From NCBI GenBank assembly GCA_963707505.1, contig CAVPQB010000006.1, forward strand, positions 704,001-768,000: a stretch of DNA of 64,000 nucleotides, read 5' to 3'. The notes under the pieces were generated by a model. That model did not search any database. It saw nothing but the letters and a program-made list of their open reading frames with translations, and was not told the DNA's origin. Made by a program: the position numbers and the translations under genes. The first letter of the stretch is position 1. Each line of letters opens with the position of its first letter. Source of the stretch: an uncultured Gemmatimonadales bacterium. Lineage in GTDB: Bacteria > Gemmatimonadota > Gemmatimonadetes > Gemmatimonadales > Gemmatimonadaceae. Below are positions 3,031-34,135 of the stretch, one piece after another.

Positions 3031-6000
3031 ATGTTCATCTCAGACTTCGCGATCAAGCGTCCCATTGTCACAGTGGTGATAATGGTCGCGCTCGTGATCT
3101 TCGGACTGTTCTCCGCGTTCAATACGGACGTGGATGAGCTACCCGACATTCAGCAGCCGATCGTGTTCGTTGCCGTTCCGTATCCCGGCGCGTCGCCGGA
3201 TCAGGTCGAGCGTGAAGTGGTCGATCGAATGGAAGAGGCGTTCCAGGGTCTCAACGGTATCGATCAGATCACATCGACGTCAACGGACGGCTTCGCGCAG
3301 ATCATCGTGCAGTTCGTTTACTCCAAGCCGACCGACGAGGCGGCGCAGGATGTACGCGATGCGATCTCCGGAATTCGCGACAAGCTCCCGGTCGAGATGA
3401 AGGAGCCGATCATCAAGAAGTTCGATCCGGCTGATCAGCCGATCGTGTCGCTCACTCTTTCGTCCAACACGCTCAAGCCGAACGAGCTGACGATTCTGGC
3501 GGACCCGGACATCACGCGCCAGCTTCAGGGACTGTCAGGAGTGGCGCAGGTGACATTGTCGGGTGGCGTCGACCGCGAAATTTCGGTCGACGTGATTCCA
3601 GCCCGTCTCAATGCGGCGAAGGTGAGCGTGTCGGACGTCGTCAACGCACTCAACGCGCAGAATCTCGCGGTTCCGGTCGGCATGATCACGGGTTCGCTGG
3701 AAGAGCGCTCGATCCGGCTGCGTGGGCGTATCGAGGACGCAAGAGACTTCGGTCAGCTCGTCGTCGCGCAACGGGGCGGGCAGGTGATCCGTCTCGCGGA
3801 CGTCGCGAACGTATATGACGGATCCGCGGAGCAGCGATCGCTCGCTCTATTCAACGGCGTCGAAGGTATCGGTATCGACATCACGAAGTCGAAGGGGAGC
3901 AGCACGACGCGCGTGAGCGATGAGATCAACGAGCGCGTAAAGGAGATAAGAAAGACCCTGCCGGCGGGCGTGACACTCGACGTCGTGCGCGATGCGGGGC
4001 CGCGCGTGACAAATTCGGTGCGGAACGTCGAGGAGGCGCTCGTCGAGGGCGCAATCCTTACGGTGATCGTCGTGTTCCTCTTCCTCAACTCGTGGCGTTC
4101 GACCGTGATCACCGGTCTTGCACTGCCGGTTTCCGCGATCTCGGCGTTCATCGCAGTCCATGCCTTCGGGTTCACGCTCAACACGATGTCGCTGCTCGGC
4201 CTTTCGCTCGCGATCGGAATACTGATCGACGACGCGATAGTAGTGCGAGAGAACATCGTGCGGCACATCGAGATGGGTGAAGACCATTTCACGGCTGCGC
4301 ACACGGGTACCGACGAAATCGGTCTCGCTGTAACAGCGACGACGCTGTCGATCATGGCGGTGTTCGTTCCGATCGCGTTCATGAGCGGCATATCCGGACA
4401 GTGGTTCCGGCCGTTCGCGCTGACGATTGCATGCGCAGTTCTTGTCTCGCTCTTCGTCTCGTTCTCGCTCGATCCGATGCTCTCGGCGTACTGGCCCGAT
4501 CCCGCGATCGAGGCGCACGAGCATCGCAGCTGGATCTCGCGCAAGCTGGACACGTTCAACAAGTGGTTCGACAGACAGGCGGATAACTACAAGGGCGTGA
4601 TTGCGTGGGCGCTGGATCATCGCGCCGATATGGTCGCGATCTCGATTGGTGTGTTCTTCGCGAGCATTCTGATTCCCGCGAAGGGGTTGTTCGCGGCGCT
4701 GACGCTGCTCGCCGGCGTACTGCTGATCGTATGGTTGATGTCGTTCAACTATCCGAAATCAGCCCTTGGTACCACTCTCAAGAGCGTCATCGCCGTCGGC
4801 GTGTTCGTGGGCTCTCTGGTGTTCGGTCTCACACTGCCAGAGCCCGGCTGGGCCAAGCTGGGGGGCGGTTTCATTCCTGATTCGGACAACTCCGAGCTGA
4901 ATGTCTCGGTCGAAGCGCCGCCAGGATCGAACATCGATTACACGCACATAAAGGCCGAGGAGATCGGGCGCATCATTCGCACGCACAAGGAAGTTGCATA
5001 TACGTACACGACTGTTGGCACTGCGACGGGTTCGGGCGAGGTGGATGTCGGGAGCATCTACGTCAAGCTGGTTCCCAAGAATGAGCGATCCATATCGCAG
5101 GGCGACCTGAGCAACATCATCCGTGCAGAGATTTCCCATGTCGCCGGTGTTACCGCGTACACGTTCAACAGCAGCTTCGCCGGTAATCAGAAGCAGATTC
5201 AGGTTCAGATTCGCGGCAACGATGCCGCACAACTGAATGCGGTAGCGGAGCAGATGGAAGTCGAGGTGCGGAAGGTTCCGGGGGCGGCCGACGTGGGACT
5301 GTCGACGAAGGGCCTCAAGCCGGAGCTCGACGTGCAGCTGAATCGCGGTCTCGCCGGAACACTCGGCATCACCGTTGGGCAGCTCGCGCAGGCGCTGCGG
5401 CCGGCGTTCGCCGGTGTGCAGGCTGGCAGCTGGGTGGATCCAACAGGAAAGACGCGCGACGTTACGGTTCGTCTTCCAGCGGCTTCGCGACAGAACGCTT
5501 CGGATCTGCGGCAGTTGCCGATCAGTGTGCCGGCCGCGAACGGCGCCTCTTCGGCACAGTCGTCCACCGCTGCTGCGACTCCGATCAATTCGGGACCGCA
5601 GACGATTCCGCTCGGCCAGATCGCGACCGTGCGTCTGACAACCGGGCCGGCGCAGATCGACCATCTGGACGAGGACAAGGTCGTCACGGTGGGTGTCAAT
5701 CCGCAGGGACGTCCATTGAGCGAGGTGTCTGCTGACGTGAATCGCGCGATCGCGAAGGTTCCATTGCCGCCCGGCGTGCACCTGTCGCAGGGCGGGCAGG
5801 TGAAGGATCAGAACGAGGTGTACGGCGCGATTGTCGCCGCGCTCGGCCTCGCGATTCTGTTGATGTATCTCATTCTCGTGGTGCAGTTCGGATCGTTCCT
5901 GGATCCGCTTGCGATCATGTTGTCACTTCCGTTGTCGCTGATCGGAGTCGTGCTCGCGTTGCTTGTAACAGGCGGCACGCTGAACATCATGTCGATGATC

Positions 6001-6441
6001 GGTGTGATTCTGTTGATGGGAATCGTCGCGAAGAATGCGATTCTGCTGGTGGACTTCGCCAAGTGGACGCGTGAATCGAAGAAGATCACGTTGCGCGAGG
6101 CGCTCATCGAAGCTGGCAGGGTACGTCTGCGTCCGATTCTCATGACGACGTTCGCGCTCATCGCTGGCATGATTCCGGTAGCGCTCGGAATCGGCGAGGG
6201 CGCCGACTTCCGTGCGCCGCTGGGACGTGCGGTGATAGGTGGCGTCATAACGTCGACGTTGCTCACGTTGATCGTCATCCCGACGTTCTACGAGATCCTC
6301 GACGAATGGCGCGAGAAGCTCGTGCATGCGTTTGGGCGTGGGACGGAGGGTGAGCACGAGCATGTGCCGGAGCACGCGCCGCGGGCCGAGCCTGGCATGG
6401 GAGCGCCGCCGAGACCAGCCATGGGCGAGCCGACACCGTAG
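3031..6441 (+). CDS. RND efflux permease (AcrB/AcrD/AcrF family)
   Basis: ATG 3031 gives MFISDFAIKRP; GILIDDAIVVRENI, AKNAILLVDF and RLRPILMTT motifs. Confidence 0.95.
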   Translation: MFISDFAIKRPIVTVVIMVALVIFGLFSAFNTDVDELPDIQQPIVFVAVPYPGASPDQVEREVVDRMEEAFQGLNGIDQITSTSTDGFAQIIVQFVYSKPTDEAAQDVRDAISGIRDKLPVEMKEPIIKKFDPADQPIVSLTLSSNTLKPNELTILADPDITRQLQGLSGVAQVTLSGGVDREISVDVIPARLNAAKVSVSDVVNALNAQNLAVPVGMITGSLEERSIRLRGRIEDARDFGQLVVAQRGGQVIRLADVANVYDGSAEQRSLALFNGVEGIGIDITKSKGSSTTRVSDEINERVKEIRKTLPAGVTLDVVRDAGPRVTNSVRNVEEALVEGAILTVIVVFLFLNSWRSTVITGLALPVSAISAFIAVHAFGFTLNTMSLLGLSLAIGILIDDAIVVRENIVRHIEMGEDHFTAAHTGTDEIGLAVTATTLSIMAVFVPIAFMSGISGQWFRPFALTIACAVLVSLFVSFSLDPMLSAYWPDPAIEAHEHRSWISRKLDTFNKWFDRQADNYKGVIAWALDHRADMVAISIGVFFASILIPAKGLFAALTLLAGVLLIVWLMSFNYPKSALGTTLKSVIAVGVFVGSLVFGLTLPEPGWAKLGGGFIPDSDNSELNVSVEAPPGSNIDYTHIKAEEIGRIIRTHKEVAYTYTTVGTATGSGEVDVGSIYVKLVPKNERSISQGDLSNIIRAEISHVAGVTAYTFNSSFAGNQKQIQVQIRGNDAAQLNAVAEQMEVEVRKVPGAADVGLSTKGLKPELDVQLNRGLAGTLGITVGQLAQALRPAFAGVQAGSWVDPTGKTRDVTVRLPAASRQNASDLRQLPISVPAANGASSAQSSTAAATPINSGPQTIPLGQIATVRLTTGPAQIDHLDEDKVVTVGVNPQGRPLSEVSADVNRAIAKVPLPPGVHLSQGGQVKDQNEVYGAIVAALGLAILLMYLILVVQFGSFLDPLAIMLSLPLSLIGVVLALLVTGGTLNIMSMIGVILLMGIVAKNAILLVDFAKWTRESKKITLREALIEAGRVRLRPILMTTFALIAGMIPVALGIGEGADFRAPLGRAVIGGVITSTLLTLIVIPTFYEILDEWREKLVHAFGRGTEGEHEHVPEHAPRAEPGMGAPPRPAMGEPTP

Positions 6442-6451
6442 ATTTCGCCGG

Positions 6452-7330
6452 GTGAGGTCAGCCACCAGCCGCGCGATGCGCGCGGCGCAGGCCGGAATGG
6501 CGGTGAATCTGATCCTCGCGGTCATCAAGCTGATCGCGGGGATCATCGGCCATGCATACGCGCTAGTGGCCGATGCAGTCGAATCGACGGCTGATATTTT
6601 CTCGTCGCTCGTCGTATACGGCGGTCTGCGGATTGCCGCGCAGCCTGCAGATGAGGACCATCCGTACGGTCATGGGCGCGCCGAGGCACTCGCCGGCGCG
6701 TTCGTGGCATTGATGCTGCTTGCTGCGGCGCTCGGAATTGGGATCGAGGCAGTGCGTGAGATAAGAACTCCGCATCACACGCCGAGGGCATGGACGCTCG
6801 CGGTGTTGGTCGGGGTGATCGTCATCAAGCAGGTGATGGCGAGCAAGGTATTCCGGATCGGTTCGGAGATCGGAAGCACGGCGGTGATGGCCGACGCGCA
6901 GCATCACCGCAGCGACGTGATTACATCGACAGCCGCGTTCATCGGCATCAGCATCGCCGTGATCGGCGGTCCGGGCTGGGAGCAGGCAGACGACTGGGCG
7001 GCGCTCGTGGCGTCGCTCGTGATCTGCTACAACGGCGTGAGGATGTTGCGGCCCGCGGTGAACGATCTGATGGATCGCATTCCGGATGACAGCGTGGTGC
7101 AGGGCATAGCGAGCGCGGCGACGAGCGTACCGGAAGTCTGTGCGATCGAGAAGCTCAAGGTACGCAAGGTGGGCTTGCAGTACGCGGTCGATCTGCACGT
7201 TCAGACAGACCCGCAGATGTCACTTCACGACGCGCATATAGTGAGCGGCAAGGTGAAGGGCGCGATACGAGCGGCGATGCCGTCGGTGGATGGAGTGCTG
7301 ATCCACATGGAGCCGTACGACCAGTCGTAG
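6452..7330 (+). CDS. Cation diffusion facilitator (FieF-like) transporter
   Basis: ALVADAVESTAD, PADEDHPYGHGRAE, DAQHHRSD and IHMEP motifs. Start is GTG 6452 or ATG 6476. Confidence 0.9.
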   Translation: MRSATSRAMRAAQAGMAVNLILAVIKLIAGIIGHAYALVADAVESTADIFSSLVVYGGLRIAAQPADEDHPYGHGRAEALAGAFVALMLLAAALGIGIEAVREIRTPHHTPRAWTLAVLVGVIVIKQVMASKVFRIGSEIGSTAVMADAQHHRSDVITSTAAFIGISIAVIGGPGWEQADDWAALVASLVICYNGVRMLRPAVNDLMDRIPDDSVVQGIASAATSVPEVCAIEKLKVRKVGLQYAVDLHVQTDPQMSLHDAHIVSGKVKGAIRAAMPSVDGVLIHMEPYDQS

Positions 7331-21444: not shown

Positions 21445-24124
21445 TCATTCTGTTCTCAACGCAATCACGGGATCGACGCGGCTGGCCCGTGTGGCAGGCA
21501 CCCACGCCGAAAGACAGGCGATCACCACGAGCGCCGTCGTCATGACGACGAAGGTTCCTGCGTCCGCCGGTGTGACGTCATAGAGCAATTGCGTCATCAG
21601 CCTTGTGAGCACGAGCGCGCCGACGACGCCCAGCGTCACTCCTACCGCCACCGCCGGCATCGCTCGGCGCACCGTTTCACGCACGACAGTCGCCCCACTC
21701 GCGCCCAGCGCCATTCGCACGCCGATCTCACGCGTACGTTGGCCCACAACATAGCTCATTACGCCGAACACACCGATGGCAGCCAACACAAGCGCGAGGA
21801 TCGCGAACGACGCCAACAGCAGCATCGCGAACCGTTGATCGGCCACCGACTGTCCCATGATCCGTTCCATGGATGTGAATTGGCGAACGGGGAGATACGG
21901 ATCGATGTCGTGGAGCTGCCGGCGAACACCGGCAGCGAGGCGGCCAGCGTCGATGCCGGGAGCCGTTTTCGCAACGATGGCCATGTCGGTGACGGGGAAC
22001 TGTGCGTGCGCCAGGTACACGGTCGGCCGCGGCGCCGATTGGAGCTGGTCGTCGTGCACGTCGTGAACCACACCGATGACTTCTCCCCCCGCACGCCCGC
22101 GACCGAGGCCGAAGCTCGTGCCAATCTCCATCGTGCGGCCAACGGGATCGACGCCCCTCCACAGCAGTTTGGCAGCAGTCTCGTTCACCACCACAACGTT
22201 CGGGGCGCCATGCCGGTCCGTTTCCGCGAACGTCCGCCCCGCCAACACCGAAATGCCGAGCGTCTGGAAGTAGCCAGGTGTGGCCACGCGTATCTGCGTC
22301 GACGGCTGGTCCGCGTCGGGAATGACCTCTCCGTCGATTGAACGCGTGGTGATGGAATAGTCGTATCCCGAGAGCGGAAGTCCTGAAATAGCAGCCGCCG
22401 TCCGCACGCCGGGCAGTTGCCGCACGCTGGCGAGCATGCGATCGAAGAAGATCCCCGACTGCTCCGGTGTGTGATACCGCGCCTCGGGAAGCGACAGGCT
22501 GAACGCCGCCACGTTCGACGCGTCGAACCCGGTCGGGACGTGCTGCAGTCTCGCGAAGCTGCGGATAAGCAGCCCCGCTCCTGCCAGCAGAATCATCGCC
22601 AGTGCGAGCTCGCCCGCAACCAGCGCTCCGCGTACCCTCCACCCGCTACGCCCGATGGTGCCGCCGCGTCCGCCGGCCTGCATCGTACCACTCAGCGTCG
22701 ACAGCCGCGCCGACTGGACAGCGGGCGCGATGCCGAACAGCAGTCCGGTGACGAGGCTCAGAACGAAGGTGAAGCCAAGCACGTGAAGATCGATACCGGC
22801 GGTGCCGAACTGATCGAGCGACGGCGGACGGATGGCGTGCATTGCACGCGTAGCGGTGAAACCGACCAGAACCGCTGCAGCGCCACCCATCAGGGCGAGC
22901 ATCAGGCTCTCCACCATCGCCATGCCGATGAGGTCGCGAGGTCGCGCGCCCAGGGCAGTGCGAACCGCGAATTCCCGTTGGCGCGCGGCACCGCGGGCCA
23001 GCAGCAGATTGGCCACGTTCACGCACGCGATGAGTGCCACCAATGCCACCGCGCCAAGCAGTATCAGCAACGCAGTTCGCGAAGACCGACCCACCAGCGA
23101 ATCGCGCAGCGGAATCGCCCTGGCGCCGTGGTCCTTATTCACTCTGGGAAAGGTCACCGCCAGTCGCCTGGCCAACCCATCGAGGTCCCGGCTCGCTGCA
23201 TCCAGCGAGATCACCCGGCTTGAGCCGCGCCACCACATCCAGATAGTGGGCCCCACGCTGAGTGCTCAGCACGGTGTCGCTGAATGCGAGCGGCAGCCAC
23301 AACACGCTGCGGTCGGGATACGCGAAGCCAGGCGGCATGACGCCGGTGACGCGTCGCGTCCTTCCATCGATCTGCACGTTCTGGCCGATTATGTCGGTGC
23401 GCGCACCGAACAGTCTGCGCCAGATTCCGTCGCTAAGAATCACCGCGTCGGTCTGACCATACGTCGTCTGGGCGGGCGTAAAGGGATAGCCGAGTGCCGG
23501 ATGTACACCGATCGCATCGAAGAATCCCTGCGTTACGTACGCACCGGAGAGCGGTAAGGGGTCACCATGTCCGGTTAGTGTCGGTGTGTCCTCATACATG
23601 GCGCCCATTGCCGAGAAGGCGTGCGTGTACCGGGTCCAATCGACGAAGTTCGGGGGCGACGTCACGTCATCGCTGCCGCGTATGCGCTCATACAGCTTCA
23701 CGATCCGTGTCGGGTTGCCGTACGGCAGTGGCCGGAGCAGCGTCGCGTTCACGACGGTGAACACGGCGGAGTTGGCGCCGATGCCCAGCGCAAGCGTGAG
23801 CACCGCGGCAGCGGTGAATCCGGGCTGATGGAGCAGTTTGCGCGCTGCGAGTCGCGCGTCGAAGGCCATCGTCCGCCACCAAACGATGCGCTCCGCTCGC
23901 CTGCGCGCTCGGGTGGAACCGCGTCGCATTCTCTTCCGTGCACTCTCGACGCTTCCGAACTGTGCGCGCGCAGCGCGCGCGGCATCGTCCGCGCTCATCC
24001 CGCGCTCACGAAAGCCGCGCTCGAGTTCCTGGAGGTGAAAGCCGATCTCGTCGTCAGCATCGGCGCGAGGGTCGGCGCCGAGGAATCGGAGATAACGCCG
24101 CCACAGCGGTTCGTCGTGACTCAT
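21445..24124 (-). CDS. ADOP-type duplicated ABC permease (MacB-PCD/FtsX), +1 frameshift near 23211
   Basis: ATG 24124 overlaps the padR stop. [13 protein letters not shown] is in ORF 23135..24286; [12 protein letters not shown] and [13 protein letters not shown] are in ORF 21445..23256. The frames join as ARLKPG/ISLDAA. Confidence 0.88.
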
Positions 24125-24483
24125 GGACAGGCGCCCGCGGGCTGAATGATCATCGGAATCTCGAGCGCCGCGAAGATCGCGTGCGCGTAGCGCGTCCAGC
24201 TGACTGTCTCCTCGCGCAGGCGCTTCGTGCCGGCGGCCGTGAGTGCATAGTATTTGGCGCGCCGGCGATCGTCGGTCAGGCGCCACTCGGCGACGATAAG
24301 CCCGCGCTCCTCCAGCCGGTACAGCGCCGGGTAGAGCGACCCATCCTCTATGCGCAGCGCGTCGCCGGTGGCCGACTCGACCCAGCGGGCGATCTGATAG
24401 CCGTGGGCAGGCGTGGCACTGACCGCTTTGAGGACCAGGAGGTCGAGGGTGCCGCGGAGGATCTGCTGTTTGAGGTCAGGCAT
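24121..24483 (-). CDS. PadR-family transcriptional regulator
   Basis: [36 protein letters not shown]. Confidence 0.95.
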
Positions 24484-24743: not shown

Positions 24744-26541
24744 GTGAGCCATCGCTCCATTTCCCGAGGCGCCGCGGCATTGTCCGTGGCCTTCGCCCTC
24801 GCCGCGCCCACACTGGCGGCGCAGCAAACCTGTCCGGCGGTCGAGCCGGGCGCCACCATGCCGCTCAAGTATCAGGGCGGTCCCACGGTCGCCGCCATCA
24901 CTCCGTGCGACCTCATGACGCGCCTGTACATCTACGCGGACGACTCGCTCCGCGGTCGCGAAGCCGGAACTCCCGACGCAATGCGCGCGACGGCGTACAT
25001 CGAACGCGAGGTGCGGAAGCTGGGTCTCAAGCCGGCTGGCGATCATGGATCCTACTTCCAGAACATGCCGGTTACGGCGCGCAGCGTAACACCGGCGTCG
25101 ACGATGACGGCCGGTGGCAAGACCTTCCACGCTGACAGGGACTTCGTCCTCTCCGCTCCGCCAGCTGACCACAAGGTGTCGGCGGCAGTCATCTTCGGTG
25201 GAACCCTCGGCGACACGACGGCCGAGCTCACCGCCGATCAGGCGAAGGGGAAGATCGTGGTGATGATGGCGCCAGCCGGCGGCAGTCGCGGCTTTTTCCG
25301 GCGCGCGCCTGGCAGCGCAAATCCGCTGGCCGACGCGGCGGCGATCGTTACTGTCACGGAGACACTCGCGAAGCCGCGCTTTCAGCCGACGCTGAATGAC
25401 ACCGTGCAGAACACGGGACGGGAGGCGTACGCTGCCAGCCATCCGAACGAAGGCAACGCACGTGGTGGCCGCGGTGGATTCGGCGGCGCCGGTCTCAACA
25501 TCACTGTCACGCCGCAGGTCGCCAGCGCACTGCTTGGAAAATCAGTAGAAAGCGCTGCCCTCGGTGATGCGGGACCGTCGGCGACGATCGACATTCACGT
25601 GAAGACAGCAGCCGCGCCGACGCGGAGCGTCGTCGCCATTCTGCCCGGCACCGATCCCAAGCTCAGCAAGCGAGTACATCGTTATCGGCGCACACGCGGA
25701 TCACATCGGTGTTTCGGGCGCGCGTCCCGTCGTCGAGCACGATTCACTCAAGGCGTACAACGAAGTTGCGCGCGTCGAAGGTGCCGACACTCGGACCGCG
25801 CCGGAGCCGACGGCGGAGCAGTGGGTGCGCATCAATGCGATCAAGGATTCGCTACGCAAGATCTATCCGCCGCGGCTCGACTCGATCAGCAACGGTGCGG
25901 ATGACGACGGCTCGGGCTCCGTGTCCATTCTCGAGATCGCGCGAGGCGTTCGCGAAGGGACCGGTCAAGCCAAAGCGGTCGCTGATCTTCATCTGGCAGA
26001 TGGGCGAGGAGAAGGGACTCTGGGGCTCGGAGTGGTTCACCAACCATCCGACGGTTCCGCGCGATTCGATCGTCGCGGATCTGAACCTCGACATGGTCGG
26101 CCGCGGCGCTGCGACCGACGTCACCGGCAAGAACAAGGACGGCGAGGAGCTGAAGGGCGCGAACAACTATCTGCAGCTCGTCGGCTCGCGTCGTCTGTCT
26201 ACCGAGCTTGGTGATATCGCCGAGCAGGTGAATAGCAGTCAGAGCCGATGCCGTTCACGTTCGATTATTCGATGGACGCGAACGGGCATCCGCAGAACAT
26301 CTATTGCCGCAGCGATCACGCCAACTATGCGCGGTACGGCATCCCGGTCATCTTCTTCACGACGGGCGGTCACGCGGATTACCACCAGGTGACGGACGAA
26401 CCGCAGTACATCCAGTACGAGCACATGGCTCGCGTCGACAAGCTCGTGTTCGACATCGCGATGCATGTCGCGGATCTCGATCACCGCGTCGTCGTGGACA
26501 AGGCGAAGCCGGACAGTCCGTTTGCGCGGTGTCAGCAGTAG
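24744..26541 (+). CDS. M28-family aminopeptidase broken by three frameshifts (~25670, ~25942, ~26246)
   Basis: ADDSLRGREAGT, then IGAHADHIG and NGADDDGSG, then GEEKGLWGS and LNLDMVGR, then RSDHANY and DYHQVTDE, in successive frames. Confidence 0.88.
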
Positions 26542-27368: not shown

Positions 27369-28370
27369 ATGGACGACTTCGATTCGTTGAAGAAGCATCA
27401 TCGCGCATTCATCACTGCGCGATCCGTCATCGCGATTACTCTGGCATCCTCGCTTGCTGCGTGCGCATCTGCCGGAAGTCGCGCGACGCCGGTGACATCG
27501 TCTCCGATATCGGTCGCTGTGCCGACGTCAGGCTATCGGATCATTTCGCCGGCCACGCGAAGCGACGTGACGATGCCGCAGATGCTCGACCGGCTGTCGC
27601 GCGCCGACGTGGTGTTCTTCGGCGAGCAGCATGATGATCCGGAAACGCACCGTGCCGAGGCGGAGATGCTCGAGGCGATCGGCCGGCTCGGGCGACCGGT
27701 CGTGCTTTCGCTCGAGATGTTCGAGCGTGATGTGCAGCCGGTGCTGGACGATTATCTCGCCGGCCGCATCGGCGAGTCCGAGTTTCTTGCGCGCAGTCGG
27801 CCGTGGCCCAACTACAGTACTGGTTACCGGCCGCTGGTGGAGCTGGCCCGCGCGCGTCACTGGCCGGTGATCGCGGCGAACGTTCCTCGGCCGCTCGCAT
27901 CGGCGGTGGCGCGAAAGGGGATTGTTGCGCTCGACACGCTCACACCAGTCGAGCACCTGACCGCGGCGCGCAAGATCGTCTGCCCGGCGGACGACTACTA
28001 CGCGCGCTTCATGGATGAGATGCACGCGCATTCCACCGGCTCGGGCGGCGCGGCCGAACCCGGCGATTCACTTCCGACGGCGATGGCCGAGCGTTTTTAC
28101 GTGGCCCAGTGCGTAAAGGATGAGACCATGGCCGAGTCGATCGTGATGGCGAAGGGTAAGGCGCCGCGCGACGCGATCATCGTTCACTTCGATGGCGCTT
28201 TCCATAGCGATTATGCACAGGGCACCGTGGCGCGTGTGAAGCGACGTGAGCCGTCGTGGGACGTAGTCGTGATCAGTGCCGTCCCTGTCGCCGATCCGTT
28301 GGTGGCGCCGATCGCGCCGGAAAGCGGCGTCGCGGATTTCGTCATTTTTACGAAGCGGGCGTCGCACTAG
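27369..28370 (+). CDS. ChaN-family (haem-uptake-like) lipoprotein
   Basis: Lipobox LAAC, FFGEQHDDPETH, LSLEMFERD, AQCVKDETMAESI, GAFHSDY. Start uncertain (27333 or 27369). Confidence 0.85.
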   Translation: MDDFDSLKKHHRAFITARSVIAITLASSLAACASAGSRATPVTSSPISVAVPTSGYRIISPATRSDVTMPQMLDRLSRADVVFFGEQHDDPETHRAEAEMLEAIGRLGRPVVLSLEMFERDVQPVLDDYLAGRIGESEFLARSRPWPNYSTGYRPLVELARARHWPVIAANVPRPLASAVARKGIVALDTLTPVEHLTAARKIVCPADDYYARFMDEMHAHSTGSGGAAEPGDSLPTAMAERFYVAQCVKDETMAESIVMAKGKAPRDAIIVHFDGAFHSDYAQGTVARVKRREPSWDVVVISAVPVADPLVAPIAPESGVADFVIFTKRASH

Positions 28371-28386
28371 TCACTCGTTCGGCTCG

Positions 28387-28658
28387 ATGGACAGGCGCCC
28401 GCCGCCTGAATGATCATCGGAATCTCCAGTGCCGCGAAGATCGCGTGCGCGTACCGCGTCCAGCTCGCCGTCTCCTCGCGCAGGCGCTTCCTGCCCTCGG
28501 CTGTAAGTGCATAGTATTTGGCGCGCCGGCGATTGTCGGTCAGCCGCCACTCGGCGTCGATGAGCCCGCGCTCCTCCAGGAGGTACAGCGCGGGGTAGAG
28601 CGAGCGATCCTCTATGCGCAGCGCGTCGTCGGTGGCCGACTCCACCCAGCGGGCGATC
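28387..28658 (-). pseudogene. 5'-truncated copy of the padR at 24121-24483
   Basis: Aligns with 24123-24394 (IARWVESAT...EIPMIIQ.AGACP); the first ~30 codons are missing. Confidence 0.88.
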
Positions 28659-28736
28659 CTGGCCGGACTGCGCGCGGGCGGGGGCCGCACCTATGAGAGT
28701 AGCCGCGACGGCGGCGACGAGGAGGTGTGATCGCAT
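28659..28736 (-). pseudogene. Orphan signal-peptide start of a lost secreted protein, joined out of frame to the padR remnant
   Basis: MRSHLLVAAVAATLIGAAPARAQSGQD (A-x-A cleavage site), then an abrupt switch to padR DNA at GATC. Confidence 0.6.
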
Positions 28737-28851: not shown

Positions 28852-30849
28852 TCACGGTTTTCTTCGCGCCTTCACATCGCTCGCCGTAATCCTCTTGCTG
28901 TTGTTTCCCCACGATGATCGTTCGTGGTTGATGATGTCTGCGATCTGTGTGTTGTTCAACAGCCCGCTGAATGGAGGCATCGCGCCTGGATAGACTGTAC
29001 CGCCGATGTTCTGCCCCTGAAGTCCGTGCAACACCACATCGATTTGCTTGGCGGGATCAGCGTCCAGCACGACGAGATTTCCCTTGAGCGGCGGGTATGC
29101 ACCCGTTATCCCCATGCCGGTAGTCTGATGGCACGCGGAGCACGTGGTTGCGAAAGCCGCGGCGCCTCGCGCTGGATCGTAACTATACGGGCCCGGCGGC
29201 TCTGGAGGCGCCGAGCTCGCGACGGCGGTCGTTGTGTCGAGTGCCGGCGTTGCGGCGACGGGAGCCGCGACTCTCGACGAGCCGACCGGGCGAACGTCGA
29301 TAACGCCGAGTGCACCGACCATGAGGTGCGCCATGTCGTGATCAACGAAGGCGTACTTGCCCGGCTTGGGAATCACCACATCGAATACGGCCCCCGCACC
29401 GGGCCCGACGGTGTACGTGGATACGCCACTCAGTGCATGCGACGCATCCCCATCGGGATAGACCTTGTCGAACATGGAACCGATGACGTGAAACGAAGTC
29501 CACAGGTTCGGGCCGCCGTCGATAAGGTAGATGCGAATGCGATCGCCCGCGATGGCGACAAGTGGACGGTCACGGTACTGGAACGCGACGCCGTTGAAGA
29601 CCACTTCGTCGGGGCGCTCGGCCAGCATCCGGTCGTAGTTCGCGGTCATGAGATGTCCGGACGCCTGCTGTGTGTACCACTCGCTCTGCAGGATCACGAA
29701 ACTCTCGTCCGCTGGTGGAAGCGGGGTCGCCGGATCCACGATCAGTGCACCATACATTCCGTTCCCGACATGCAACAGAATGGGCTGCGTCTCGCAGTGG
29801 TAGATGAACGCGCCAGGCACGTTCGCAACAAACGAAAACTTGAGCGACTTGTTTGGCTCGACGTCGATGTAATTCAGATTCGGTTCTGTCTCGGCGGCAT
29901 GAAAGTCGATGGAATGCTTCATGTTGCCGTGATTGGTAAGCGTCACGTTTACCGTCTGTCCCTGGCGCACGTGAATGATCGGACCGGGGACGGTGCCGTT
30001 ATACGTCCACGCCTGATACTCGACGCCGTTCGCGATGGTAACCGATTCATCCGTGACGACAAGATGCAGATCGACGCTGTTGCCGGTACCGAGAAGCGGC
30101 GGCAGGTGTGCATCGCGAGCCTTCGCGATCGGTTCCTGCAAGGCAAGCGAGAGAGGTGACACTGCGGCAGCGGCTGCGCCAGGCGATGGCGACCTCACGT
30201 TGAACGCGCTGTGCAGGCCGCCGATCAGCATCACGAGCAGAGCCAGAACGCCGAGCATCGCAAAGATCTGGATGCGCCATGGAAGGCGCTCGGGTTCGGA
30301 CGCGAGCGTATCCGCCGTGCCCCACTCCGCGAACCGGCGCCAGCGCGGCCACCGATTCTCGATGTGATAGTCCAGACTGTAAGGGCTGCGTCCGCCGCGG
30401 CTGTTGATGGCGATGAGTGCGACGAAGATCAGCACGTAACTGATCGCAGTGCCCATGTTCGTCGCACCGACCGTGTACGGTCCACCGAACCCCTCAGCGG
30501 TGCTCCAGATCAGTAGACTGAACAGCCCGCCCACGATGTAAAGGATCTTTCGCGCGAAGCCCGTGAGCAACGCCACGGCGATCGCGGTTTCAATGATGCG
30601 CGTGAGCCATGTGAAGAGGAGGGCGTGCGGTGTGACCAGCGCGATCCACATCGAGAACCAGCCGGCCAGCCAGGCGGGCTGTCCCTGTGCGGCATTGTGC
30701 AGATAGCCCACATAATGAACCGCGAAATCCGGTGACCACGTCAGCGCTGCACCAACCGCCCATACGACGCCGAAGGCTACACGCAGCCCTGCGGCTGCTA
30801 CTGCCGGCCAGGTCCTGTGCGTGTGTACGTCAATTTGCGTTTGTGACAT
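28852..30849 (-). CDS. nirK: Copper nitrite reductase with N-terminal DoxX/TQO-like membrane domain and C-terminal cytochrome c
   Basis: HSIDFH, YHC, LLHVGNGM, SFHVIG and FVDH supply all T1/T2 Cu ligands plus catalytic Asp and His. CSACH and GAMP form the haem site. The N-terminus has LRVAFGVVW...EGFGGPY...YSLD and about five hydrophobic segments. Confidence 0.85.
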   Translation of the reverse strand: MSQTQIDVHTHRTWPAVAAAGLRVAFGVVWAVGAALTWSPDFAVHYVGYLHNAAQGQPAWLAGWFSMWIALVTPHALLFTWLTRIIETAIAVALLTGFARKILYIVGGLFSLLIWSTAEGFGGPYTVGATNMGTAISYVLIFVALIAINSRGGRSPYSLDYHIENRWPRWRRFAEWGTADTLASEPERLPWRIQIFAMLGVLALLVMLIGGLHSAFNVRSPSPGAAAAAVSPLSLALQEPIAKARDAHLPPLLGTGNSVDLHLVVTDESVTIANGVEYQAWTYNGTVPGPIIHVRQGQTVNVTLTNHGNMKHSIDFHAAETEPNLNYIDVEPNKSLKFSFVANVPGAFIYHCETQPILLHVGNGMYGALIVDPATPLPPADESFVILQSEWYTQQASGHLMTANYDRMLAERPDEVVFNGVAFQYRDRPLVAIAGDRIRIYLIDGGPNLWTSFHVIGSMFDKVYPDGDASHALSGVSTYTVGPGAGAVFDVVIPKPGKYAFVDHDMAHLMVGALGVIDVRPVGSSRVAAPVAATPALDTTTAVASSAPPEPPGPYSYDPARGAAAFATTCSACHQTTGMGITGAYPPLKGNLVVLDADPAKQIDVVLHGLQGQNIGGTVYPGAMPPFSGLLNNTQIADIINHERSSWGNNSKRITASDVKARRKP

Positions 30850-31013
30850 CTGTCACACACTCCGTGATACTCGGGCCGCCAACAGGGTCGCCGGTCCCGG
30901 TAACCGATGCGCGCGATCGTATGTGATCAAAGTACAGATAATCCTGCAGCTTCGTTGCAGCTGGAGCGGCTGGCGCATTGCGCGCACCGAAGCCCGCTCG
31001 CCATCCCTTCGTA

Positions 31014-32749: not shown

Positions 32750-33286
32750 TTAGTCGCGCAGATAGTGACAGCTGTAGCCGCCGGGATTCTTTTTCAGGTA
32801 GTCCTGGTGGTACTTCTCCGCACTGTACCATGTCGAAGCAGGCTCGATCGACGTCGTGATCGGCTTCTTCCACTTGCCTGACGCCTGCACGCGCGCGATC
32901 ACCTGTTCGGCGATCTTCGCCTGTTCCGGTGACTGCGGAAAGATCGCGGAGCGGTATTGCGTGCCGATGTCGTTGCCCTGACGATTCAACGTTGTCGGAT
33001 CGTGCAGGCGGAAAAACCAGTTCTCGAGCAGGTCCTGGTAGCTGAGCACCGAGGGATCGAAGGTGACTCGGATCGATTCTGCGTGCCCCGACTTGCTGTC
33101 GTGCGTGTCTTCGTAGGTGGGATTCTTCACCCAGCCGCCCGTGTAGCCCACGTCGGTGTCGATGACGCCGGGGACCTCGCGAAGAATGTCCTCGACGCCC
33201 CAGAAGCAGCCGCCCGCGAGGACGGCGATTTCAGTGCGGGTGGCGGCTGCTACGCCCGAGTCCGTTGCGTGCTGTTGTTCGTTCAT
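32750..33286 (-). CDS. msrA: Peptide-methionine (S)-S-oxide reductase
   Basis: AGGCFWG, GHAE, HDPTTLNRQGND.GTQYRS, AEKYHQDY. Confidence 0.95.
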   Translation of the reverse strand: MNEQQHATDSGVAAATRTEIAVLAGGCFWGVEDILREVPGVIDTDVGYTGGWVKNPTYEDTHDSKSGHAESIRVTFDPSVLSYQDLLENWFFRLHDPTTLNRQGNDIGTQYRSAIFPQSPEQAKIAEQVIARVQASGKWKKPITTSIEPASTWYSAEKYHQDYLKKNPGGYSCHYLRD

Positions 33287-33436
33287 TTCCGACCTTCCGT
33301 TCAAGCATTGGCGCATTCAATGGCGCGTCAATGAAAGATAAATGTCCTGGGCGGTGAAATGTCGCTGACGGTGTGGTGCCCCGCGTCCTGGGCACGGGGC
33401 AATGCCAGACCTTGCTGTGACCGTGGCTGCCCGTGG

Positions 33437-33937
33437 CTATGAGCGCTGTACCGTCCGTCCGATTCGCACGCGCCAGACTTCCGGTCCTTCTTCCAGCGCG
33501 TCCCACGTGAATTCACCCTTGTGCTCGGCGTCGAACTGATACCACAGCGGCTTGGGATCGTGATCGTTGACGAGCACGTATGCAGTACCCGGCGCGAGTG
33601 CTGCGAACTGGTCGAATATTATTTCATGCCGCACCCTGGGTGTTTCAGGGCGGACGTCAATGATGCGGTCTTCGGTGTGCATTGCGGCCTCCATTTGAGC
33701 CTGGCGTTGCTGTGCTTCGAGTTTCTGTTCCAGGCGGGACAGAAAGTGCATCGCGCCATCCAAGCGCTCGGCGTCATCGGGATAGTCGTCTCTCAGCAGC
33801 GACCAGCCTTCCGCCGCAAGCTGTGCGGCGGTGGATGGATGGCCCGCCTTGCCCAGCTCACGGCACGTGTGAGCGAGAATGCGAGTGAGTGCGTTTACGA
33901 CAGCTGCCGTAACGACTTCCGGTGATGGTTCCATCAT
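33437..33937 (-). CDS. DUF2249-domain protein with extra N-terminal helical region
   Basis: IDVR..PRVRHEIIF..LVNDHDPKPL.YQF..EGPEVWRVRI. Confidence 0.8.
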   Translation of the reverse strand: MMEPSPEVVTAAVVNALTRILAHTCRELGKAGHPSTAAQLAAEGWSLLRDDYPDDAERLDGAMHFLSRLEQKLEAQQRQAQMEAAMHTEDRIIDVRPETPRVRHEIIFDQFAALAPGTAYVLVNDHDPKPLWYQFDAEHKGEFTWDALEEGPEVWRVRIGRTVQRS

Positions 33938-34135
33938 ATCAGGTGACAATTTGACCCTCCGCATGCAATCTGCAGTATGAACGCGCGAATTTGCAACGGG
34001 CATTGGCGGGATGCGACCTGCACGCTTTGATATTCGCGTGCACCCAACGCTCCGGCCTGGGGTATGAACGAAAGTCGATACCGACGGCTCCCGGAAACCG
34101 CATTTGTGCGCTCACCCTGTTACAGGTGCAGTCTG

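Follow-up and report, generated by a model that had tools for sequence, protein, structure and literature searches.

What does a DoxX-type membrane domain do when it is built into a copper nitrite reductase (NirK)? The question is raised by a gene in a 64,000-nucleotide stretch of DNA from an uncultured Gemmatimonadales bacterium (assembly GCA_963707505.1, contig CAVPQB010000006.1, positions 704,001 to 768,000), and this whole stretch is called the window below. The gene encodes a protein in which the membrane domain is followed by a NirK core and a cytochrome c (Table 1). An initial annotation of the window had seen in it a possible self-contained quinol:nitrite oxidoreductase, linking the quinone pool or thiol and sulfur redox chemistry directly to nitrite reduction and bypassing the cytochrome bc1 complex. 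The fusion is a real and widespread variant of NirK, whereas quinol oxidation by its membrane domain is a live hypothesis and not a result.

A single chain of three domains

Reading of the open reading frames (ORFs) of the window revealed no interruption across the 665 codons, and the fusion of DoxX, NirK and cytochrome c is a genuine single chain. An assembly chimera was ruled out by full-length relatives 98% identical in other genomes. All motifs named in the initial annotation were located, namely LRVAFGVVW at residue 22, further motifs of the N-terminal domain (N-domain) at 86, 119 and 157, HSIDFH at 312, YHC at 350, H-x4-M at 360-365, SFHVIG at 452, VDH at 502 and, after the Pro/Ala/Thr-rich linker, CSACH at 570 with Met624. 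Its five N-terminal hydrophobic helices likewise lie within residues 15-213 (~15-37, 77-96, 101-119, 132-150 and 193-213). Pfam agrees with this order, placing Cu-oxidase_2/3 at ~265-446 and Cytochrom_C at 560-642; with 37.9 bits against the PF00034 cut-off of 21.3, CSACH at 570-574 and Met624, the C-terminal part is a class I cytochrome c domain.

The loops of the membrane part carry 0, 2, 0 and 8 lysine or arginine residues. By the positive-inside rule, these charges would leave the N-terminus inside and the enzyme outside the membrane. The fifth helix, which is missing from stand-alone DoxX proteins, would serve for export of the enzyme part.

The copper nitrite reductase core

The type-1 copper ligands His312, Cys352, His360 and Met365 are kept in all 188 full-length fusions, a set made of the window protein and every protein of at least 495 amino acids from two top-120 lists. 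Together with the type-2 ligands His317, His351 and His504 and the catalytic Asp315 and His454, they form nine copper and catalytic residues that are complete in 186 of the 188. These type-1 ligands, type-2 histidine triad and catalytic Asp/His pair are the criteria for NirK given in the accessible text of Decleyre et al. (2016; PMC4770552). Pold et al. (2024; PMC10999283) distinguish NirK from other multicopper oxidases by motif forms given in the legend of Fig. S2, within the accessible parts of that work; HSIDFH, YHCET, SFHVIG and FVDH fit the NirK forms and not the oxidase forms. A test for small laccase, a two-domain multicopper oxidase, was negative, the His-x-His and His-Cys-His trinuclear motifs being absent and Asp315, Ile456 and Asp503 occupying positions where oxidases carry His or Cys.

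The best solved relatives of the core are all nitrite reductases, and two-domain multicopper oxidases score below NirKs in both sequence and fold searches. For the core alone, Geobacillus NirK is closest in sequence (209 bits), and in fold Nitrosomonas NirK ranks at the top (Z 30.0) with Geobacillus NirK at Z 28.9; residues 258-663 reach 248 bits against cytochrome-tethered NirKs in the PDB. The window protein obtains 192.7 bits against the TIGR02376 equivalog cut-off of 296.3, and its relatives 186-209 bits, a shortfall that blocks the automatic label but not NirK chemistry. By its residues, motifs and fold, the core is assigned to NirK, and NO formation from nitrite is predicted for it.

The DoxX-type membrane domain

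The window N-domain, searched as residues 1-215, 1-170 and 1-190, had no Pfam or NCBIfam match, PF07681 (DoxX) included, and for this reason its assignment rests on relatives. PF07681 was matched by 27 of 44 aligned family members (E up to 0.1, best 2.5e-7), DoxD by six (best E 0.029) and MauE by four, while in NCBIfam the top family was HvfX (16/44), TQO_large_DoxD being matched by two (best E 0.045). Stand-alone proteins of 170-220 amino acids annotated as DoxX are ~50% identical to the window N-domain, and one stand-alone family member scored 0.98 against DoxX clusters. Through these relatives the N-domain is placed in the DoxX clan, not in PF07681 itself. Of the initial DoxX/DoxD label, the first half is upheld at clan level by relatives, with fold matches that point the same way but stay below the tool's level for helical bundles, and the second is not; the profile scan suggested at that time recovered Cu-oxidase and Cytochrom_C and left the window N-domain unmatched by DoxX or DoxD.

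The domain is modelled well (predicted local distance difference score 89, predicted template-modelling score (pTM) 0.84), with two amphipathic helices predicted on the outside at residues ~42-54 and 59-72. No solved structure was matched by sequence for the DoxX family, and Foldseek returned nothing at E <=0.001. Ratios of nonsynonymous to synonymous change (dN/dS), roughly counted in six non-independent pairs, were 0.033-0.049 for DoxX, 0.030-0.070 for the core and 0.077-0.159 for the cytochrome. Mean identity was 77% in the DoxX domain and 73% in the core, a comparison biased by retrieval of the set with the N-domain. Because purifying selection is as strong on DoxX as on the catalytic core, the domain is judged to be functional and more than an anchor. 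A plain anchoring role was rejected on this selection and also on the ground that the fifth helix would by itself suffice as an anchor. Tyr49, Asn52 and Arg84 are invariant in 188/188 fusions and Asn131 is found in 184, whereas stand-alone relatives carry Ala at 84 (92/104) and Asp at 131 (103/104), besides Asp33 (98/104) and Lys37 (101/104). These exchanges indicate that the domain was remodelled after fusion.

Distribution and variants of the family

The N-terminal 240 residues match 540 proteins of 365-1164 amino acids, and 309 stretches in GTDB encode a relative. In the best 80 of these 309, 67 ORFs contain all three domains, 10 contain DoxX and core, and four the N-terminal part only, the shorter ORFs lying mostly at contig ends or frameshifts. 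The design therefore recurs in the domain-architecture search that the initial annotation had proposed. These 80 loci, like the 50 host genomes of the nirK, qNor and cytochrome b counts below, include one genome flagged as unpublished (G005, locus L015), which also enters one dN/dS pair; the conclusions are independent of it. Cytochrome c is present in 110/188 full-length fusions and absent from 78, the latter being mostly 518-529 amino acids long, with a few truncated. Since these 78 keep DoxX without the cytochrome, DoxX and NirK appear as the fixed unit and the cytochrome as optional. On a 40-row sample tree, rooted at its midpoint only, the cytochrome requires three changes, which would fit one gain and two losses.

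The NirK-fused domains all fall into a single branch of the DoxX-domain tree (48 of 73 rows, support 100/99), and six Gemmatimonadota rows group together among Pseudomonadota. The fusion is rare in Gemmatimonadota, being found in 3 of 301 genomes and in a single genus. Hosts include Rhodanobacter glycinis MO64, R. caeni, R. lindaniclasticus, Frateuria flava, Paraburkholderia denitrificans and gamma proteobacterium HdN1, and further Steroidobacteraceae, Stellaceae, Ca. Tyrphobacter and, by source names, Thermomicrobiaceae, Nitrolancea and Opitutaceae; cultured strains are found in Rhodanobacter, Paraburkholderia and HdN1. No neighbouring gene is conserved across lineages in the 80 loci and hence no operon, and only synteny within lineages was seen, such as ubiA/comF-like genes (labelled by eye) upstream in 11-14 loci. 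A Nevskiaceae contig carries two full-length copies within 6.5 kb (L060:361-2436 and 4335-6452). In the alkane-degrading nitrate reducer HdN1 (L074) the fusion is the only nirK match, beside a nirS-type gene and several qNor-like genes; the accessible text of the HdN1 paper contains no mention of nirK, nirS or "nitrite reductase".

Host genomes and regulation

The survey of hosts covered 50 of 80 genomes, many of them incomplete metagenome-assembled genomes and with close kin that are non-independent; the nirS and DoxA surveys also covered 50, one of the former set being exchanged for the genome of the window. In 31/50 no nirK match other than the fusion was found. A nirS-type gene occurs in five genomes of its survey, all five among these 31. 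The quinol-dependent NO reductase qNor was found in 26/50 and in none of the six Gemmatimonadota sampled.

The window's genome, 83% complete and by its nearest relatives apparently from Gemmatimonadaceae, encodes a second, ordinary NirK of 339 amino acids, whose core is 45% identical and whose gene stands beside a CRP/FNR-type regulator. A subunit of alternative complex III is present, while neither cytochrome b of bc1 nor qNor was found in this incomplete genome; none of the ORFs of the window was recognized by eye as a nor gene either, as the initial annotation had noted. The four full-length haem-copper matches of the genome look like oxidases, two on reading and two from neighbouring CuA-type matches. 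Its nosZ is of clade II type and broken by a frameshift near 545600. A region outside the window (G000:C6:543000-571000, part of which is locus L001) groups this nosZ with genes for a cupredoxin, a heavy-metal ATPase, haem-copper oxidase subunit I, the CRP/FNR-type regulator and a two-component pair, and with the second nirK; the region showed no nor gene.

Of the 80 related loci, 8 carry an exact FNR-type box in the 200 bases before the gene, against 0.04 in shuffles, which points to anoxia-type control of some relatives and speaks for nitrite reduction. In the 200 bases upstream of the window's fusion gene no such box was found with up to two mismatches, and the promoter scan detected no consensus promoter upstream of it on the minus strand. 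The CRP-type palindrome across its start codon keeps its upstream half only in two 98%-identical relatives.

Sister DoxX genes and their partners

Stand-alone DoxX genes were surveyed in the best 80 of 510 metagenome loci, which are 64-77% identical to one query and are counted as one lineage. In 37 of the 41 loci with at least 1 kb downstream, the gene is followed by one for a sulfocyanin-like lipoprotein, which has a Met-rich arm and a type-1 copper motif of the form His...Cys-His-Met, and CsoR-type or CopA-type genes occur in 43 of the 49 with at least 1 kb upstream. The recurring cassette (L101, L135 and others among L099-L178) comprises the stand-alone DoxX, the lipoprotein, a SHOCT protein (59/80), a CsoR-type repressor (47/80) and a CopA-type ATPase (17/80). 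This set resembles a module for the response to copper that has apparently not been described before and that probably comes from Actinobacteria.

Two fused relatives are of interest. P0148 (354 amino acids) lacks the NirK core, joins DoxX straight to cytochrome c and is nested in the fusion branch, and P0283 (433 amino acids) joins DoxX to a tail that by eye is sulfocyanin-like. The DoxX branch thus seems to pair repeatedly with type-1 copper or haem carriers, a pattern that fits electron hand-over and copper handling alike. Among four regions with distant plasmid relatives, one lies by a multicopper oxidase, rhodanese and DsrE, one by a metal-sensing repressor and DsbA, and the rest are uninformative. 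The same family also holds tandem double-DoxX proteins of ~330-370 amino acids (P0242, P0289, P0296, P0311 and L096:5905-6894), one of them on an Acidithiobacillus caldus megaplasmid, adjoining a LysR gene.

A possible quinol-fed enzyme and its alternatives

We tentatively propose, at somewhat less than an even chance, that the fusion is a NirK held in the membrane, facing outward and forming NO, in which the DoxX domain hands electrons from quinol to the type-1 copper, either directly or through the optional cytochrome. The predicted place of the enzyme is the inner membrane, where it would face outward and reduce nitrite to NO, with DoxX as its built-in electron input and the quinone possibly bound by DoxX under its two outside helices. 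In the forms that have it, the tethered cytochrome c may act as a shuttle to the type-1 copper and receive its electrons either from DoxX or from one of the complexes bc1 and alternative complex III. Following established NirK chemistry, the protein would be a trimer in which electrons pass from type-1 to type-2 copper via Cys352-His351, and nitrite would be bound at the type-2 copper with Asp315 and His454. Electron flow from quinol to the type-1 copper is downhill by midpoint potentials, and the DoxD subunit of thiosulfate:quinone oxidoreductase (TQO) holds a bound quinone and is not known to carry haem. Direct quinol oxidation by the DoxX domain is plausible. It is possible, yet on balance doubtful, that the family is a widespread class of self-sufficient quinol:nitrite oxidoreductases, the first NirKs to draw straight from the quinone pool, with a haem-free DoxX whose ancestral job was to link quinol to type-1 copper proteins.

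Several observations weigh against DoxX as the quinol input, namely the lack of a cofactor ligand, the lack of packing between domains in the full model, an assembly factor as the nearest fold match and the presence of bc1 in most hosts. No invariant haem-ligand His pair occurs in the membrane domain of the 188 fusions and no invariant redox Cys pair in 116 N-domains; Cys is absent from 101 of these 116, the window protein among them, and His45 (168/188) and His51 (130/188), both on an outside helix, are not invariant, which leaves no haem b and no disulfide relay in the domain. The Asp/Lys/Asp set of stand-alone relatives has become Gly33/Thr37/Asn131 in the window fusion, where Arg84 may substitute for the lost Lys37. 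The AlphaFold model of the full fusion (pTM 0.47) left the domains unpacked. The nearest solved folds of the DoxX model are the assembly factor NACHO/TMEM35A (Z 10.2, root-mean-square deviation 3.0 over 122 residues) and the N-terminal half of GGCX (residues 51-190, Z 7.3-9.3), both eukaryotic, 12-15% identical and below the tool's level of ~13 for helical bundles; we take both to be members of the DoxX clan. The vitamin K pocket of GGCX is formed by TM5-TM8 with Lys218 and Asp263, according to the accessible part of PMC12647623; it lies outside the aligned part, and hence this match gives no support for a quinol site. Cytochrome b was matched in 43/50 hosts, so that nothing forces a bypass of bc1 as initially suggested, even though the window's genome has no such match and an alternative complex III subunit instead; compensation for a missing bc1 was rejected on the same count. 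The context of the sister genes, finally, is copper resistance, although it comes from one close clade.

Among the alternatives, it is unlikely, though it deserves serious attention, that DoxX is a maturation module for copper loading, folding or trimerization of the outside NirK core, with electrons arriving by the ordinary route. Such help would be useful at low pH, and the hosts presumably live in acid habitats. The copper clusters of the sister genes, with CsoR, CopA and the Met-rich blue-copper lipoprotein, would suit this role, as would the top rank of HvfX, a maturation protein of copper-binding peptides, and of the assembly chaperone NACHO. For NosZ, maturation is likely impaired by low pH and is rescued by small helper proteins, according to the accessible part of a preprint (bioRxiv 10.64898/2025.12.16.694761). 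However, the DoxX domain has no Cys/Met-rich copper motif and its His residues vary, copper genes do not accompany the fusion (CopA in 2/80 loci), and the ordinary 339-residue NirK of the same genome has no DoxX domain. Moreover, the DoxX-type BufD of a copper-peptide operon was dispensable for its copper-binding peptide, as stated in the accessible part of PMC11626156.

It is likewise rather improbable that DoxX is a docking scaffold holding NirK to bc1, alternative complex III or an NO reductase, that complex oxidizing quinol and the tethered cytochrome c carrying the electrons. The distribution of cytochrome b, the alternative complex III subunit of the window's genome, the long flexible linker that suits a shuttle, the cytochrome c tethers known from other NirKs and the absence of cofactor ligands from DoxX would all agree with it. 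Nevertheless, one partner hardly explains why the domain stays nearly invariant when the complexes III of the hosts differ; no such partner is found among conserved neighbours, qNor occurs in only about half of the hosts, and 78 fusions have no cytochrome to carry electrons.

It is very improbable that in vivo the copper core is mainly an oxidase or runs backwards, making nitrite from NO, and that DoxX and cytochrome c drain its electrons. The low TIGR02376 score, the many hosts without qNor, the relatives from a Nitrolancea record and the NO oxidation suggested for Nitrosomonas NirK, the top fold match, in a passage of PMC10999283 could be read in this sense; yet the NirK-specific residues are all kept and the His motifs of oxidases are missing, some members have FNR-type boxes upstream, and the fusion is the sole nirK match of most hosts surveyed. 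Finally, a true DoxD that oxidizes thiosulfate or thiols and passes the electrons to nitrite, in line with the sulfur link of the initial annotation, is extremely improbable and thiosulfate is not a likely donor, for although the top Atlas match of the window N-domain is a DoxD-labelled cluster (0.86, a lead only) and one distant stand-alone relative has genes for rhodanese and DsrE in its vicinity, the domain has no Cys, DoxD and TQO matches are marginal, no sulfur genes recur among neighbour clusters, and DoxA was found in 0/50 genomes, many of them incomplete, by a search that was positive in a Bacteroides control.

Relation to known nitrite reductases and significance

Parts of this design have already been published, namely C-terminal cytochrome tethers and a membrane extension of ~400 amino acids in actinobacterial NirK. 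The cytochrome c-tethered NirKs (PDB 3ZIY/6QPV group and 2ZOO), of which 3ZIY is, we assume, the Ralstonia pickettii enzyme, likewise combine the core with a C-terminal class I cytochrome c. They possess neither DoxX nor a polytopic anchor, whereas the fusion has a Pro/Ala/Thr-rich linker and a core nearer to Geobacillus NirK. The NirKs of Geobacillus, Nitrosomonas europaea and Hyphomicrobium (3WIA, 3X1E, 4KNS, 2DV6) share the two-domain core and all copper ligands but have no DoxX, and rely on separate carriers or an extra cupredoxin. The job proposed for DoxX, bringing quinol electrons to an outside reductase without bc1, is done elsewhere by quinol dehydrogenases of the NapC/NirT type; these are tetrahaem proteins on separate chains, share no kinship with DoxX and are known as partners of NirS, Nap or Nrf, not as fusions to NirK. 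TQO DoxD/DoxA belongs to the same clan of four-helix membrane domains, in agreement with weak DoxD matches in relatives, whereas the fusion has no DoxA partner and no Cys and scores far under the family level. The Propionibacterium acnes NirK also carries an N-terminal polytopic membrane domain, which, unlike that of the fusion, comprises ~400 amino acids, goes with an extra cupredoxin and looks unrelated to DoxX, as far as the accessible text of Decleyre et al. (2016) describes it.

The family is probably clade 9 of the NirK tree of Pold et al. (2024) and thus already on that tree; the representative of this clade is Rhodanobacter glycinis in the accessible part of the study, its strain being unstated, and the only nirK match of R. 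glycinis MO64 is the fusion. That work scanned NirKs for membrane helices; the words "DoxX", "DoxD" and "TQO" are absent from its readable supplements and "transmembrane" from its main text. Expression of NirK in Rhodanobacter thiooxydans R12 has been reported to go along with nitrite reduction, the copy being unstated in the accessible text (PMC12146267), and the domains are undescribed in the accessible part of the Rhodanobacter genome paper. The open-access literature searched contained no description of a DoxX-NirK fusion, of its copper-partner link or of its biochemistry, so that the initial view that no characterized enzyme has this architecture apparently holds.

Many database records label the fusion only as multicopper oxidase, and it also falls below the standard NirK cut-off; it may therefore be an under-counted source of NO and nitrous oxide (N2O) in soils. 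Should DoxX deliver electrons from quinol, nitrite would be reduced without a proton-translocating complex III, and this reduction could act as a low-yield sink or a nitrite detoxifier. Rhodanobacter and other soil denitrifiers would then possess a path to NO that is independent of bc1, and a general function would be given to the DoxX family. If DoxX instead loads copper or assembles the enzyme, it would be a built-in maturation device. Either way, NO formation offers a simple readout for the poorly understood DoxX family.

Features of the window

Table 1. Location of the fusion gene, its parts and the associated palindrome in the window
Feature	Position	Strand	Remarks
Whole gene, DoxX-TM5-NirK-linker-cytochrome c	28852..30849	minus	665 amino acids, ATG start
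DoxX-clan domain, residues 14-175	30325..30810	minus	four membrane helices, EGFGGPY loop, no Cys
Fifth membrane helix (TM5), residues ~193-213	30211..30273	minus	from hydrophobicity and model; predicted to put the enzyme outside the membrane
Two-cupredoxin NirK core, residues 256-521	29287..30084	minus	from sequence and fold matches
Pro/Ala/Thr-rich linker, residues 522-555	29185..29286	minus	poorly conserved, mean identity 36%
Class I cytochrome c, residues 556-662	28864..29184	minus	CxxCH 570-574 and Met624; optional across the family
CRP-type palindrome TGTGA-N6-TCACA, perfect	30842..30857	no strand	spans the start codon of the fusion; sole copy in the 64-kb window

Frameshifts at window positions ~23135-23256 and 25850-26250 break an ABC-permease-like gene and a peptidase-like gene; with the break in nosZ they suggest indel errors in the assembly, by which the fusion gene is unaffected. 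A near-identical pair of PadR-type regulator copies is located at 28367-28690 and 24121-24483, and the former, just downstream of the fusion gene, has lost its N-terminus and looks like a decayed duplicate. Genes for MsrA and a DUF2249 protein lie at 32750-34003, 2-3 kb upstream of the fusion, and are not among the recurring neighbours of its relatives.

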